In this document: positions 51,001 to 57,000 of the stretch, one piece after another
How the letters are laid out: each line of letters opens with the position of its first letter
How positions within the stretch are numbered: the stretch's first letter is position 1
Assembly (NCBI GenBank): GCA_026770705.1
Contig: JANJGN010000011.1
Span: 154,628,001 to 154,692,000, forward strand
Reading direction: 5' to 3'
Length of the DNA: 64,000 nt
From: Isurus oxyrinchus
Lineage: Eukaryota
Made by a program: the position numbers

Positions 51001-54000
51001 TATACTGAGCAGTCCCACTGTAGTCAGATAATGTGAAGGGAATCAAAAGATATAGTAATATCCGTTGCTTGCCAGAGTACCTCAGCATATACCTTATTGT
51101 CAGTGTGCACATGTGTAAAATCCAGCTCTCTCAGTCAACTTTGCAGTGGCATGAAGCAGATTCTTGTGAATAACTTAGCTGGACAGCAAAGATATGCCAA
51201 CATCAGAGCAATGTTGACATATCCTCAATGAAGGGAAAATAATGAAGATACTGTTGCGCTAATAATACAGCCCAAATCTGCTCTAAGAAGCATTCAAAAC
51301 TTCAAATGATGAAAGCCTGTGATTAATGCTGTCTTGAATTTGTTATGACCAGATCAGTTACTTTATCTGGTTAATCAGGTAACCTCGGAAAACATAGGAT
51401 CTGATATATTTTGGGACCTGGTGAGGATGGTTGTGTTCTTAAAATTGAAGCCAGTTTAGAAAGCTTGGATTGTGGACACTGAAATGAAACAACTGGTTTA
51501 GTGAGTTGACTATCACTGGTAAAGGGTTGTCATCCTGAAGTGCTCACACCTCATCATGTGAGATCCCTCAGTCCTGTGCTCGCTGACTTGTAATGACCCC
51601 TGGTCCAGCAATGCCTCAATCTTAAGATTCTTATCCTTTGTTCAAATCCTTCCAGGGTCTTACTGCTCACTATCTCTGTAATCTTGTGTAGCCTTACAAC
51701 CCTTTGAGATCTCTTTGCTCCTCCAGTTCTGGCCTCTTGCACATCCCTAATTTTCAAGATGTCATCATTAACAAACATGTCTTCAGCTGCCAATGTCTTA
51801 AGCTCCAAGAATTCCCAATCTAAGCATTTCCACCTCTCTCTACCATTTGAAGATGCACCTTAAAACCTATCCCATTCCTGTCCTAATATCTGAAACAAAA
51901 ACAAAAAGTGCTGGAGAAACTCAGCAGGTCTGACAACATCTGTGGAGAGAAAGACGGAGTTAATGTTTCGAGTCCGTATGGCACTTTTTCAGAACAGGTC
52001 CCTGTCCTAATATCTCTTTGTGTGGCTTGGTGTCAAATATTGTTTGATGACTCTCCTGTGAATTGCTACAGTACAGTTTTCTATATTTGAAGTGCTGTAC
52101 AAACCAAGTTATTATGTTGAAAATTGTTAATGCAATCGAATTAGGTACTCGAACATAGAACCAAATTCAAATGGACTTTCTTTGGCTCCCATTGGCCTGG
52201 ATTTTGTGGTGGTAATGATAACAAATTGCCAGTGTTCCATTACTCCACTGAAACTGGCAGCAACTTGTGGAGTTGATACAGGTGTAGCATAACATGGAAA
52301 TCTAAAAGTTTCTGTCAGTAATTCTACACTTCTACAGAGGGTGCACTATTGAGGCACAACCAGACAGCAATCAGTGGACCTCAACTGAATTGAAGAGAAC
52401 TTCATCCTTACACAGTTAGCCTCACTGTAAAGACCCTTGACAAAGTTGCACCTTGTTGAATGAGGTTGTTAACAGTGTACTAATTTTGTAATTGCTACTG
52501 ACCACCGTCACAGGCCCTGGAAACATATTTTATATCAGTGGAACGTTGAAATCTCTACATAATGATATAAAAAAAAACCCTGCATTTTAAGCTCATTCAT
52601 TCACCTAAAAAAATATTTGTTTATCTTTATTTTAGCTTCTATCTTCATCCAGCCACAATCATTTATTTTGCTATCTGAAAAGATAAATTAAAAATGAAGG
52701 GCATTTTCTATGTTTAACTTCCTGATTTGCTGTGTTTGCACACTTCAATGTGATTGGCTGCTTACCTGCCTGATGACATCACTGCTGCTAGATGCCTGGA
52801 GATGATCCCATTGACTTGGTGCCAGATTTAAACTGACACTGGGAAAGGGGGAAATCCCCACCTCAGAGATTGCCAGATCTTTGTCTACAGTTGTTCTTAA
52901 GGTCAGCAACAAGTGCCCTTGTTTTGGTGCTGACCTTGGGTCCAAATATTAAAAACGATAGCCACCATATAAAACGCCGCTGCAAGTGATAATGGTTTGA
53001 TGCAGCAATTTTAAACATATGCAAGCACAAAGCTATCCTCAATTTATGTCATGGTGTACTGTGATATCATGACAAATGGGTTAATAAAGCACTCGTACTT
53101 ACATATCAGGAATCTGTACAATGTGCCCTTTGCAAAACAAGCTGCAAGATCAGAAAACAAAGCACTGATTGAAAACTCAATAAAAGAATTAAGAAAAATG
53201 TTATCCGTCCATTATTGTCTCCTGATTCTCACAGCAGCCTCATGCCACACCTGCGCAAGTGAATAAGATTAGACTTTATCCAGTGGGATTTTTTAAAAAA
53301 TAGTAAGCTCCTTGGGATCTTTTAACAAGTTGACGGCATTATATAGATGCAAGTTGTCGTTGCTTTTCTGTGATTGATATTCTTCCATCTGATATTTTCT
53401 GGACAGGAAACCAGAATATTATTGAATATCATATAATCATTAGGGGTTGGGGGAGGGGTGGGGGTTCAAGTTTCATCTGGAGCCTGTGTTTGAATTCAGC
53501 CTGAATTGGAGCTAAAGTGTCATAGTGACCTAGTAGAAGGCCATTCAGCCCATTCAGTTTATGCTGTCTCTCTATAGAGATTTGATAGATGGAGCGTGTT
53601 CTTTGCTCTGCCACTTACAAGGGCGTTAAGCATTGTTGCTTAGGAGATATTGATACAGTTCCTGCTTGCCTGAAGTTCATCAAGCAAAACTGCCCATAAA
53701 TTGGTGCTGAGTAACATTAGCTTGACAGTGCCATTCATAAGCCACAAGGATGACTGGTGTGGAAAATGCACGCAGTACTTCTGCCAGCAGCAAAATAAAT
53801 CATGCGTTCGGAGTTCAGCTGCAATAATTGACAATTACCACCTTAACTTCTGCAAGGAAGCCACTTGACCTTTGCAAATGATTTTTCTTTCCACTCCGCA
53901 CAGCCGGAAAACAGATGAAAATGGTGTCCACAGTAGCTAAACTGCGGAAGGTTAAATTCTCCACGTTGGCCATGCACATGCTTGTGAAACAATTCACAAG

Positions 54001-57000
54001 ATTACAAAGAGTAACCCTGGCCACGAAACCCAAAATGCCCACTAGTGAGGGTCACCGACGTGGCTGGAACCTCATTACTGAAAAAGTCAGCAACATTTCC
54101 AAAGTAGCTCGAACAGCCGAGGACTGTCGAAAGCGCATCAATGACCTGAGGCTTGGCGCTCGACAAAAAGTCGCTTTTGACAAACAGAGAGGTACAGTCC
54201 AACACACAGATGTGGCAAAAGAGAAAGTCCTAACATGGGAGGAAGAAAAAGTGGCCCCGGTAGTCCACCTTGTGGAACATGGACCTGATGCGTCCTCTGA
54301 CTCCAGTGATTCTGGTGAGTGTTGCATTGTTTTGTCAAACCCATCATTGCTTACCTCAGACATTGCAGTCTCAGCTATTACCATTATTGCAGTCTCAGCT
54401 ATTACCATTAAGCATGCAGTGCAATGATTATGTATGCAAGTCCTTCAAAGCCTATGTAAATGTCCTTGCTCTATCATGAATTGCCAGCTTTCTCATATTC
54501 AGCATTCTTGCAAAGCCTTATTGTGAACTAACCCTTCAGTTTATGCAGAGTCCATCGTCAATTAAACCAATGTCCTGTCTTTTTATCTTCCCAGATGAAT
54601 GTTGCACTTCAAAACTCTTGAGATCAGAACAACAGCAAACCACTGTGATCTTGGAGGAGGAGAAGGTATCAACCCAGCGTCAGGAACCTGGAGTGGCTAT
54701 GGAAGGTGCAGAGAGCGACAAGGTACAACAAGGTTCACGTGGGGAACGTAAAGAAGACTGTACAGGTGGGCAATGGAAAGCAGCATCTTATATGAAAGTG
54801 CCCTCCTCAGAGCAATTAGAGCAAAGAGAGTCACGTCAGCCAGAGGCAACTGGTGCTGTCAATGCCTCTTCTCTATCACACTCCCAAAATGCACATGGTG
54901 AGGAGCTTTGCCCCATATGTCGTAGGTTAGATACACTTGTGAGCACTGTGCAGCGTGGGTTCAACCACATACATAGGGACATAAATACATTGCAAAATGC
55001 TTCACAGTATCGTGGTGCCCGGCTGTCCCAGAATGTCATGTCTCTAGTTGGTGCAATGCACACACTTGTGAGACTCCATCATTTTTCCACCTTGCCACGC
55101 AGAGATGTGGCTATTCAGACCTCCATTATGCTGACTGAAAGGCATCTGGGAGAGAATGTTGGGGCAGCATCCAGTGACACCACAACTATATCGAGTGGCA
55201 ATGTAACTACACTCAGTGACACCCTACCTACATCCAGCAACATTGGAATGACATCCAGTGACACAGGAGTTTCATCCAGTGACACAGGGACTGCATCCAG
55301 TGACACAGTGATTGAAGTATCACTCGATCCTGATGGTGACTCTGCAGAGAGTATGTCCATTGAGGAGTCCTCTCAAAATTCTTCAGACAGTGATTGGTAA
55401 AGTCAGTAAAAAAAAATTCAAATATACATGGAGTTGACTGTTTGAATTTAACTATTTAAGCTTCCTTACAATTAGATTTAAAGTTATATATTTGACTTAG
55501 TAGATCTACTAATTTATACAGTAGCCCATTAGCTTAAAATAGCTAAAACACTGCATGCGAGTATTTACCATGGGTATTAATGTAGGATTAGCAGTTTTGT
55601 AATGAATTCAATGTCATTTAAAATGCATGTAATCTAAAATCCAAACACTCTCGTCACCTATCTGTCTTGTTTGGAATTCTTTGTAAATTTTTTCCACTTC
55701 CATAATTATTAATGTCGTTTGCAATAAAACAAAAAAATACATTATCCATCTTCTATCATGATCTGTGTTGTTTTGTTGTTTGCAATGGAGGTTTTGTACT
55801 TTTTTTTCATATTTCATAGCTACCTGTGTTGTGTGTAATAAACATTTTATATCAGTCATTCTTTGTCCCGTGTCTGCTTTTCATGCCCATGTTGCTTCTC
55901 CCTTGCTTTTCCATTTTGTCTAAATTTTACACATGAGCCCCTACTTGGCAGAGCAGCCTGAGGTATCAAGAATTATCTGTCTCATGTGGTTGTCTTTCAT
56001 CCTATGCCGCGTGGTTCATTTATGTTATTACTGAAGCGTGAAGTTTGGATTTCATCATCTCACAGATGCATTATTTTCCATGATCATAAGTTTGCAGAGG
56101 CCTGTTTTAAAATAATGCTATTCTATACTGTGCATAACAAAGTAGCATCAACATGGTTTAAGTTAAGACATTTCAGACCTCATCGACTGATTTGTTGGAT
56201 AAATATATATAAAATATGAAATTTATAAGCAAAAGTATTTCTTTCTTCTTGGTTGCAAGCAATATGTTTTTAAATCTCCTCTATATGGATTTAATGTCCC
56301 AGTTGTTATTATTGGACTAATGAGTCTTCCATTATCCTCCTAAACAAGACTTATCAAGTGAGCGCACAGAATTTGGCTTAAATTAGGAGTTCCATATGTT
56401 GGGTACAGTTTATCCCCAGCAAATTTATAGCAGGATTTAAAATATATATATAATTTAGAAAAAAAACTCATTCTGTAAGCTACATCGCCTTTCCATTCCG
56501 AGAAACATGTTATAAGCTGTTACCATCAGCTGTTGAACAGAGCTGCCTGAGTTCATTTCAATATGCAAGGTTTGATTTCCTCATACATTTTTGGCCTCCA
56601 TATTACAAAACAGATGTAGAGTTACTAAAGGAGGTGAAAAAAAAGATATTTAGGAATGATAACAGAACAATCAATAAAGACTCAACAGGCTGAGGCTCTC
56701 TTCTCTCGAAATGAGAGGGCTCAGGGATGACCTAATAGAGTTCTTTATAATTAGGAAGGGTTTCGATAGCGTTGATGTGGAGAAGATTTTTCTGCTCGTG
56801 AGATGCCCATAATTCAAGGTCATGAATATAAGATGGTCACTAATACATCAAATAGGGAATTCAGGAGAAACTTCCTGACCCAGAGAGTGGGGAGTATGTG
56901 CCACATTCTGACACATGGAGTAGGTGAGGTGAAGGGAAGGGGAAGGGGAAGGTAGATAAGTGCATGAGGAAGAAAGGGGTGGATAAGGTGAGAGGAGACT

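Follow-up and report, generated by a model that had tools for sequence, protein, structure and literature searches.

The stretch of DNA analyzed here (the window) comprises 64,000 nucleotides of the shark Isurus oxyrinchus (GenBank assembly GCA_026770705.1, contig JANJGN010000011.1, positions 154,628,001 to 154,692,000 of the forward strand), and all positions below refer to it. It carries a two-exon unit encoding a Myb/SANT-like DNA-binding domain, located in an intron of the protocadherin gene PCDH9 and on the same strand. Direct reading of the sequence and of the open reading frame (ORF) listing showed that two plus-strand ORFs (53882-54427 and 54480-55400) are joined by a single 280-nt GT-AG intron of phase 1 (54315..54594, plus strand), with donor ATTCTG/gtgagt and acceptor cttcccag/ATGAAT, which splits an Asp codon. 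Counted from the ATG at 53915, the frame takes in 400 nt of exon 1 (53904..54314, plus strand) and 806 nt of exon 2 (54595..55400, plus strand), giving 401 codons followed by a TAA at 55398-55400. The spliced 401-residue coding sequence of the original prediction was thus correct to the base, and the two AATAAA signals that it had reported lie at 55723-55728 and 55837-55842, in an A+T-rich 3' untranslated region (55401..55842, plus strand). Exon 2 also contains an internal donor of phase 1, GTACAG/gtgggc, with its GT at 54766 (plus strand). The intron holds a perfect 24-nt tandem duplication (54362-54409).

Exon 1 opens in phase 1 directly behind a splice acceptor, position 53904 being the first base after it. 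In the sequence, this acceptor reads as a polypyrimidine tract and CAG (53882..53903, plus strand), with pyrimidines at 17 of the 20 bases ahead of cag; an in-frame TGA (53879-53881) lies immediately upstream of the tract. The 11 nt between the acceptor and the first ATG are free of stops, and the first two of them complete a split codon. The ATG at 53915 was found in the window alone, in a weak context (C at -3, A at +4); the models of Chiloscyllium, Stegostoma and Scyliorhinus have Thr at this position, and the ATG looks like a lineage-specific ACG-to-ATG change. The second Met, at 53921, is kept in all relatives and stands in a strong context (A at -3, G at +4).

Two PCDH9 exons lie upstream on the same strand. 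Exon A, the penultimate coding exon (20152..20353, plus strand), was identified by tblastn, with 98.5% identity over 67-68 residues to the protocadherin-9 models P0003 (Scyliorhinus canicula) and P0006 (Stegostoma tigrinum). It is preceded by the acceptor ttctttctag, ends in phase 1 with one extra base followed by gtgagt, and carries an RRVTF motif, which we take to be the PP1-binding motif of delta-1 protocadherins. Exon B is a mini-exon of 45 nt (26148..26192, plus strand), of phase 1 at both ends and flanked by tcttgcag and gtacct. Its tblastn match is weak when taken alone (57-71% identity over 17-21 residues, E 0.28-0.48); the codon at the junction of exons A and B reads Met, as in the database models, and in P0002, P0005 and P0006 exon B is placed between exon A and the Myb unit. 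The PCDH9 identity of these flanking exons comes from same-strand matches to NCBI models that score on Cadherin and on Protocadherin PF08374, and they bear out the location in a PCDH9 intron that had been predicted.

The order on the plus strand is exon A, exon B, Myb exon 1 and Myb exon 2, with canonical splice signals and phase 1 at all boundaries, so that Myb exon 1 is in frame with both PCDH9 exons. All possible junction codons are sense codons (Met from A to B, Thr from A to the Myb unit, Ala from B to the Myb unit). The distance from exon A to the Myb unit is 33.5 kb. The canonical PCDH9 end, as found at the end of P0003, had no tblastn match in the window, and the unit is thus placed in the last PCDH9 intron; the KEHQL-type end is presumably the canonical PCDH9 C-terminus. 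Judged by its sequence, the window is built exactly like the PCDH9-Myb fusion isoforms present in the databases. Two further observations concern the host exons. Exon A contains an internal, in-frame alternative acceptor at 20277/20278 (ctggttcag/CCG), 126 nt downstream, which the database isoforms P0002, P0004 and P0005 use, skipping 42 residues that include RRVTF. Exon B is Ser-rich and, among the models examined, is confined to those isoforms that run on into the Myb unit (P0002, P0005 and P0006).

The peptides encoded by exon 1 and exon 2 were searched, aligned and folded separately, and full-length chains are those of database proteins only. The exon-1 peptide matched the Pfam family PF13873 (Myb_DNA-bind_5) with 29.2 bits (cut-off 21.7; E 9.2e-07) over profile positions 1-77 of 78, which corresponds to residues 11-87 and to a Myb/SANT-like DNA-binding domain at 53945..54175 (plus strand). 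An N-terminal domain of this kind had been predicted; Myb_DNA-bind_4 and MADF, the latter proposed as a check, remained below their Pfam cut-offs for this peptide. The same family was matched in P0001 (24.6 bits) and in P0006 (25.1 bits), where Cadherin, Protocadherin and Myb_DNA-bind_5 are found in a single chain. The first 95 residues, which include the domain, are strongly basic (23 Lys/Arg versus 6 Asp/Glu, net +17), and an acidic linker follows the Myb region. All Atlas neighbors of exon 1 are Myb_DNA-bind_5 clusters (score 0.92), one of them named 'MSANTD4 family', which we treat as a lead only. The search of PDB sequences gave a single match for exon 1, to a SANT-like stretch of EP400 (E 0.81), and the AlphaFold2 model of this peptide, built on a shallow alignment of 5 rows, reached a predicted local distance difference test (pLDDT) value of 54.2.

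For the exon-2 peptide, no Pfam family scored above its cut-off, the Atlas gave no usable match and the search of PDB sequences gave none. AlphaFold2 predicted one long helix (residues 106-164) with pLDDT values of 92-95, the remainder being below 50. This helix (core 54912-55088) falls within a near-invariant block of 74 residues (54903..55124, plus strand), in which only 2 of the 74 alignment columns vary, and its pattern is heptad-like, with 65% hydrophobic residues at the a/d positions versus 36% overall. Complex prediction with two copies of residues 96-180 of exon 2 (score 0.02, mark 0.32) has no bearing either way on self-association. The last 97 residues form a tail with 39% Ser+Thr and a net charge of -15. 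Within this acidic tail lies an array of 21-nt repeats (55167..55308, plus strand), each encoding 7 residues rich in Ser, Thr and Asp; the length of the array varies between species, with a gap of 7 residues in Heptranchias. At the start of the helix, a Cys-x2-Cys and a His-x-His pair (54903-54980) are invariant in the window and in the three exon-2 relatives, Scyliorhinus being left out; they may represent a zinc site, or chance.

The unit is present in other sharks. When longer proteins were searched with the exon-1 peptide, 6 proteins were retained among 139 candidates, one of them being P0001 of Heptranchias perlo (see below) and the other five NCBI 'protocadherin-9 isoform' models: P0002 of Chiloscyllium plagiosum (1458 residues), P0003 of S. 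canicula (1412 residues) and P0004, P0005 and P0006 of S. tigrinum (1433-1490 residues). Each of these five has the unit directly behind the same PCDH9 cytoplasmic residues, read through the acceptor before Myb exon 1. The whole unit makes up the C-terminal ~400 residues of the Chiloscyllium and Stegostoma models, and four of the five end at the same C-terminus as exon 2 of the window. The exception is P0003, which carries most of the unit as a cassette, quits exon 2 at the point matching the GT at 54766 and continues into the canonical PCDH9 end. In clusters at 90% identity, P0002 has 20 members and P0003 has 15. A search with the exon-2 peptide among proteins of similar length, in a collection of 5.8 billion, retained a single protein among 744 candidates: P0001 of Heptranchias perlo (391 residues), a stand-alone protein that starts at the conserved Met and is 80% identical over 100% of the query.

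Overall, the unit of the window is 81-87% identical to its relatives. Exon 1 shares 111-114 of 131 residues with the four species. For exon 2, whose alignment leaves out Scyliorhinus as its model departs from this exon, 215-222 of 259-266 residues are shared, and identity to P0001, P0002 and P0004 is 80-83% over the full length. Chiloscyllium and Stegostoma form the closest pair (125/131 in exon 1, 236/265 in exon 2), and in trees built for each exon only this orectolobiform pair was well supported (0.997-0.998), the placement of the window among the sharks reaching 0.64. The splice junction of the unit is identical in all five sequences, and the codons between the acceptor and the conserved Met are open and similar across species. 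The species concerned span both Squalomorphii (Hexanchiformes) and Galeomorphii (Orectolobiformes and Carcharhiniformes); therefore, the unit predates the deepest split of living sharks. At the level of the gene, orthologues at the same locus are provided by the protocadherin-9 models of Chiloscyllium, Stegostoma and Scyliorhinus, as the original prediction would require. As to its being specific to cartilaginous fishes, the unit has so far been seen in sharks only, and the failure of four protein searches to return a counterpart in rays, chimaeras or bony fishes is weak evidence of absence.

The pattern of conservation, as far as these alignments go, indicates constraint and not decay. At least 146 amino-acid changes were counted on the tree with no stop codon, versus 7.9 stops expected without constraint (P 3.7e-4), the expectation being derived from the 5.1% of non-synonymous single-base changes in these codons that give a stop. 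Variation within exon 2 is also uneven: 2 of 74 columns vary in the near-invariant block versus 88 of 193 elsewhere, a distribution matched by none of 100000 shuffles.

No transposon was recognized around the unit. Of the 78 ORFs of at least 85 residues in the whole window, 74 were sent to Pfam (the 4 overlapping the unit were left out), and none encoded a DDE transposase; likewise, none of 144 ORFs of 45-84 residues between 46 and 64 kb, 11 of the 155 lying inside the unit and being left out, scored above a Pfam cut-off or matched a DDE family, and the exon peptides of the unit itself carry no DDE domain in Pfam. The inverted-repeat scan of 50-60 kb gave 20 pairs of at most 26 nt (73-94% complementary), none of which brackets the unit; the best of them measures 26 nt with 73% complementarity. 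The DDE_Tnp_4-type ORF and the terminal inverted repeats (TIRs) of an autonomous Harbinger/PIF element are thus both missing from the 74 + 144 ORFs and the scan, as had been stated for the transposase and TIRs. Neither tblastn nor self-blastn detected a second copy of the unit in the 64-kb window. In self-blastn of 51.0-58.5 kb, decayed dispersed repeats were present only at 51568-51999 and 56725-56921 (70-81% identical elsewhere), and nothing between 52.0 and 56.7 kb was repeated. Within the window, therefore, the unit has the profile of a domesticated Harbinger Myb-like gene, with no transposase, TIRs or target-site duplication and no multiple copies.

Since the unit lies in sense orientation, has a phase-compatible acceptor and is annotated as part of protocadherin-9 in three sharks, it looks like a set of captured alternative 3' exons. 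We favor the reading, at a probability of roughly 0.6, that PCDH9 has captured a domesticated Harbinger-type Myb-like gene, which now serves it as alternative 3' exons and may in addition be expressed by itself. The Harbinger origin is suggested by the Pfam family and by background knowledge of these elements, including the available text of PMC9392472. According to this reading, the Myb-like gene of an ancient Harbinger-type transposon would have inserted in sense into the last PCDH9 intron in an ancestor of living sharks; the transposase and the ends would then have been lost, and the unit kept under selection. Because the acceptor of Myb exon 1 is good and in frame (phase 1), PCDH9 transcripts could end in the two Myb exons and their own poly(A) signals, replacing the canonical last exon. 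A fusion mRNA of this type is probably made, and the cytoplasmic tail of its product would end in four segments, with the basic Myb/SANT domain first, then a disordered linker of acidic character, the long invariant helix and, last, an acidic stretch rich in Ser, Thr and Asp. The conserved internal Met, in its strong context, may also give a free protein of 399 residues. A domain of presumed transposon origin is in frame with host exons in all five models, as in known host-transposon fusions, and the phases and junction codons of the window match.

A number of observations weigh against this reading. The fusion is known here from gene models, which are automatic predictions; gene-model pipelines reuse proteins of related species, and the three species may not be independent witnesses. 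Furthermore, the models disagree, P0003 departing at the internal donor toward the canonical PCDH9 end, and the Heptranchias protein P0001 stands alone from the conserved Met, which is in a strong context in the window. Sense orientation combined with a matching phase would be expected by chance in about one in six insertions. The Myb scores are modest (24.6-29.2 bits), and P0003 has no Myb family listed at E values up to 0.01. The absence of stops was counted in gene models and in a frame picked as open, both of which favor intact copies, and in-frame insertions and deletions between protein models carry no weight. The lack of any ray, chimaera or bony-fish counterpart, noted above, also counts here, with the little force that it has.

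The original prediction had described a separate gene nested in PCDH9 and not part of it, a view that the sense strand, the phase-compatible acceptor and the position of the unit at the C-terminus of protocadherin-9 isoforms in three species led us to revise. We consider it possible rather than probable that the unit is an independent nested gene, with its own promoter and 5' exon in the PCDH9 intron, which yields only a free nuclear protein of ~399 residues, the PCDH9-Myb isoforms being read-through products or annotation artefacts. The Heptranchias protein is indeed modelled alone, and each of the five sequences retains the Met at 53921 (A at -3, G at +4). Moreover, a transposon gene arrives with a start codon, poly(A) signals are part of the unit, and the named domesticated Myb-like genes NAIF1 and MSANTD1-4 are free-standing (PMC9392472, in its available text). 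However, any transcript of such a gene would still need an upstream exon, because the acceptor lies 11 nt before the ATG; there is no CpG-rich stretch upstream, the CpG observed/expected ratio being 0.17-0.36 over 53000-53749; in-frame fusion of the unit to PCDH9 is seen in five models from three species; and the codons between acceptor and Met are open and similar across species. The fusion and the independent gene are not mutually exclusive readings.

The two remaining explanations fit the data poorly. Shark substitution rates are low, and a dead, functionless Harbinger Myb-like gene could on this account look intact and have been predicted as a gene since its frame is open; the procedure by which the unit was found favors intact copies, and its linker and tail are variable (the 88 of 193 columns mentioned above). 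Such a neutral relic is very improbable, given the absence of stops where 7.9 are expected, the contrast between block and remainder that no shuffle reproduced, the splice junction kept in all five sequences, and the decay of the neighboring repeats to 70-81% identity. That the unit is an ordinary, possibly still mobile, non-autonomous Harbinger copy lying in PCDH9 by chance is scarcely tenable: Harbinger elements do encode a protein of this type (PMC9392472, available text) and the Myb_DNA-bind_5 domain is present, but there are no TIRs, transposase remnants or other copies in 64 kb, a single protein of similar length was found among 5.8 billion, and at least three other species have the unit in this same gene.

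If PCDH9 does end in the captured Myb exons, the likeliest role of the new tail would be that of a DNA- or protein-binding module whose helix serves for self-association or for binding a partner. It could bind DNA or chromatin after release of the cytoplasmic domain, or act as a protein-binding, self-associating scaffold. A bolder proposal, which we regard as doubtful and which draws on analogy, is that the PCDH9-Myb isoform acts as a transcription regulator tethered to the membrane: shedding and gamma-secretase cleavage would be under the control of homophilic adhesion, and the released Myb/SANT tail would enter the nucleus and bind DNA directly. Were this so, a single protein would lead from cell-cell contact to gene regulation, a route that sharks would have invented through capture of a transposon gene. 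The intracellular domains of gamma-Pcdhs, PCDH19 and FAT1 are released by ADAM10 and gamma-secretase and reach the nucleus, as described in the accessible part of PMC7339444; the analogy is functional only, since those tails have no recognised DNA-binding domain, and cleavage of PCDH9 is not described in that part of the source.

The unit can be compared with several known systems. In the portion of PMC9392472 available, Harbinger elements are described as encoding a transposase and a Myb-like protein, from the latter of which NAIF1 and MSANTD1-4 derive, and TSNARE1, MYPOP, ZSCAN20 and PRDM11 are listed as further Harbinger Myb-derived candidates. NAIF1 and MSANTD1-4 resemble the shark unit in having a Myb/SANT-like domain of the same Pfam clan, no remaining transposase or TIRs, a fixed locus and conservation (same source and portion). 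They stand alone across jawed vertebrates, whereas the shark unit is located within PCDH9, whose models include it. No protein named NAIF1 or MSANTD was among the matches of the four protein searches, and the original prediction had not recognized it as a named vertebrate member either; three of these searches need shared 5-residue words and the exhaustive one was run with exon 2 only, so that a distant link to NAIF1/MSANTD through the Myb domain is possible. Because no named NAIF1/MSANTD-type member was found among the matches, we assign the unit to the domesticated Harbinger Myb-like kind, as a new member, and do not equate it with NAIF1 or MSANTD.

A close parallel is TSNARE1, in which a Harbinger Myb-like trihelix domain is fused to a SNARE protein (10.1101/2021.02.09.430442, as far as its text was available). 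As proposed for the shark unit, a Myb-like domain of Harbinger origin is in frame with a protein of neuronal membrane biology, and splicing selects the ends (10.1101/2021.02.09.430442 and PMC9392472, in the same portions). Compared by description, the two differ in that the host of TSNARE1 is a SNARE and the fusion is described as old in vertebrates, whereas the host of the shark unit is a cadherin and the unit is seen in sharks only; in addition, the latter lies at the very C-terminus of a type I adhesion receptor, to which it adds a helix and an acidic tail of its own.

The proposed birth route is also that of the tetrapod host-transposase fusions such as KRABINER, in which the element inserts into a last intron and an acceptor that it carries is then spliced to the host exons upstream (10.1101/2020.05.07.082677, available text); in these fusions, as proposed for the shark unit, the product is a chimeric protein with a DNA-binding domain (same text). 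That survey covers transposase domains, and the text available mentions no Harbinger, Myb or cadherin (10.1101/2020.05.07.082677). By contrast, the captured part in the shark is not a transposase domain: it is the accessory Myb-like partner protein, and the host is a transmembrane adhesion molecule and not a KRAB or SCAN protein. An autonomous Harbinger/PIF transposon likewise encodes a Myb/SANT-like DNA-binding protein, often with introns; the shark unit differs from it in having no DDE domain, TIRs or other copies in the window and in its fixed position in several species. Our literature search, which stopped short of the supplements of PMC9392472 and 10.1101/2020.05.07.082677, found no description of a PCDH9-Myb unit, and protocadherins have 0 mentions in the available portions of these two papers.

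Known domesticated Harbinger Myb-like genes and host-transposon fusions are mostly nuclear factors and mostly tetrapod. It would be unusual for the tail of a protocadherin to end in a conserved DNA-binding domain, and such a tail, kept across the deepest split of living sharks, would offer a testable case for direct signaling from an adhesion receptor to chromatin. It would also extend capture by alternative splicing to a transposon accessory gene and to cartilaginous fishes. If the fusion mRNA were an annotation artefact, there would remain a new domesticated Myb-like gene, specific to sharks and nested in PCDH9.

The helix of exon 2 is shared more widely. A profile search retained 7 proteins among 5592 candidates, namely P0001, two unnamed records and four 'uncharacterized' proteins from Narcine bancroftii (a ray), Hemitrygon akajei, Scyliorhinus torazame and Rhincodon typus. 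The last four, which we call the unit-B family, are 74-88% identical to one another and 24-30% identical to the unit; they share the helix, have no Pfam match and do not carry the Cys-x2-Cys and His-x-His pairs. The exhaustive search with exon 2 returned four proteins at E values up to 0.001 (P0007, P0008, P0009 and P0010). P0010, a sorbin/SH3 protein model, has this helix at its C-terminus (30% identical over 91 residues, E 3e-11). P0007 was the top match (E 1.8e-46, 37 stretches) and was rejected as a relative: it is an array of zinc-finger-like 83-residue repeats, 3179 residues long, whose score sums over the repeats, each of them aligning to the unit at 24% identity with an E value of 0.002-0.003 in the region of Cys-x2-Cys and His-x-His. 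The unit-B family, a second conserved family with this helix in rays and sharks, comprises the database proteins P0008, P0009, P0011 and P0013; P0011 still shows a remnant of the final Myb helix (E 7e-4), and P0013, in which the module stands behind another N-terminal part, is named 'PDZ domain-containing protein' by UniRef. By these comparisons, elasmobranchs have at least two further relatives of the helix module that are conserved or attached to a host protein. Such relatives may be attached to other large scaffold genes, or may have been merged with them by gene predictors; the pattern hints at repeated capture of the module family by large neuronal scaffold genes.

Elsewhere in the window, one of the 74 longer ORFs scored above a curated Pfam cut-off, an RVT_1 fragment on the minus strand (22111-22602, 47.8 bits). 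It adjoins an 18-nt tandem repeat (22657-22781, 6.7 copies), and the two mark a decayed retroelement in a PCDH9 intron. This repeat shares 9 bases with the repeat of exon 2 and was considered as its relative, but the translations are unrelated and the candidate was dropped. Rfam gave 0 matches at the gathering score in the window. The whole window has a G+C content of 41.9% and a CpG observed/expected ratio of 0.29, and contains no N; a G-rich low-complexity repeat is located at 4506-4584 and a long degenerate (AC)n tract at 36440-36708.

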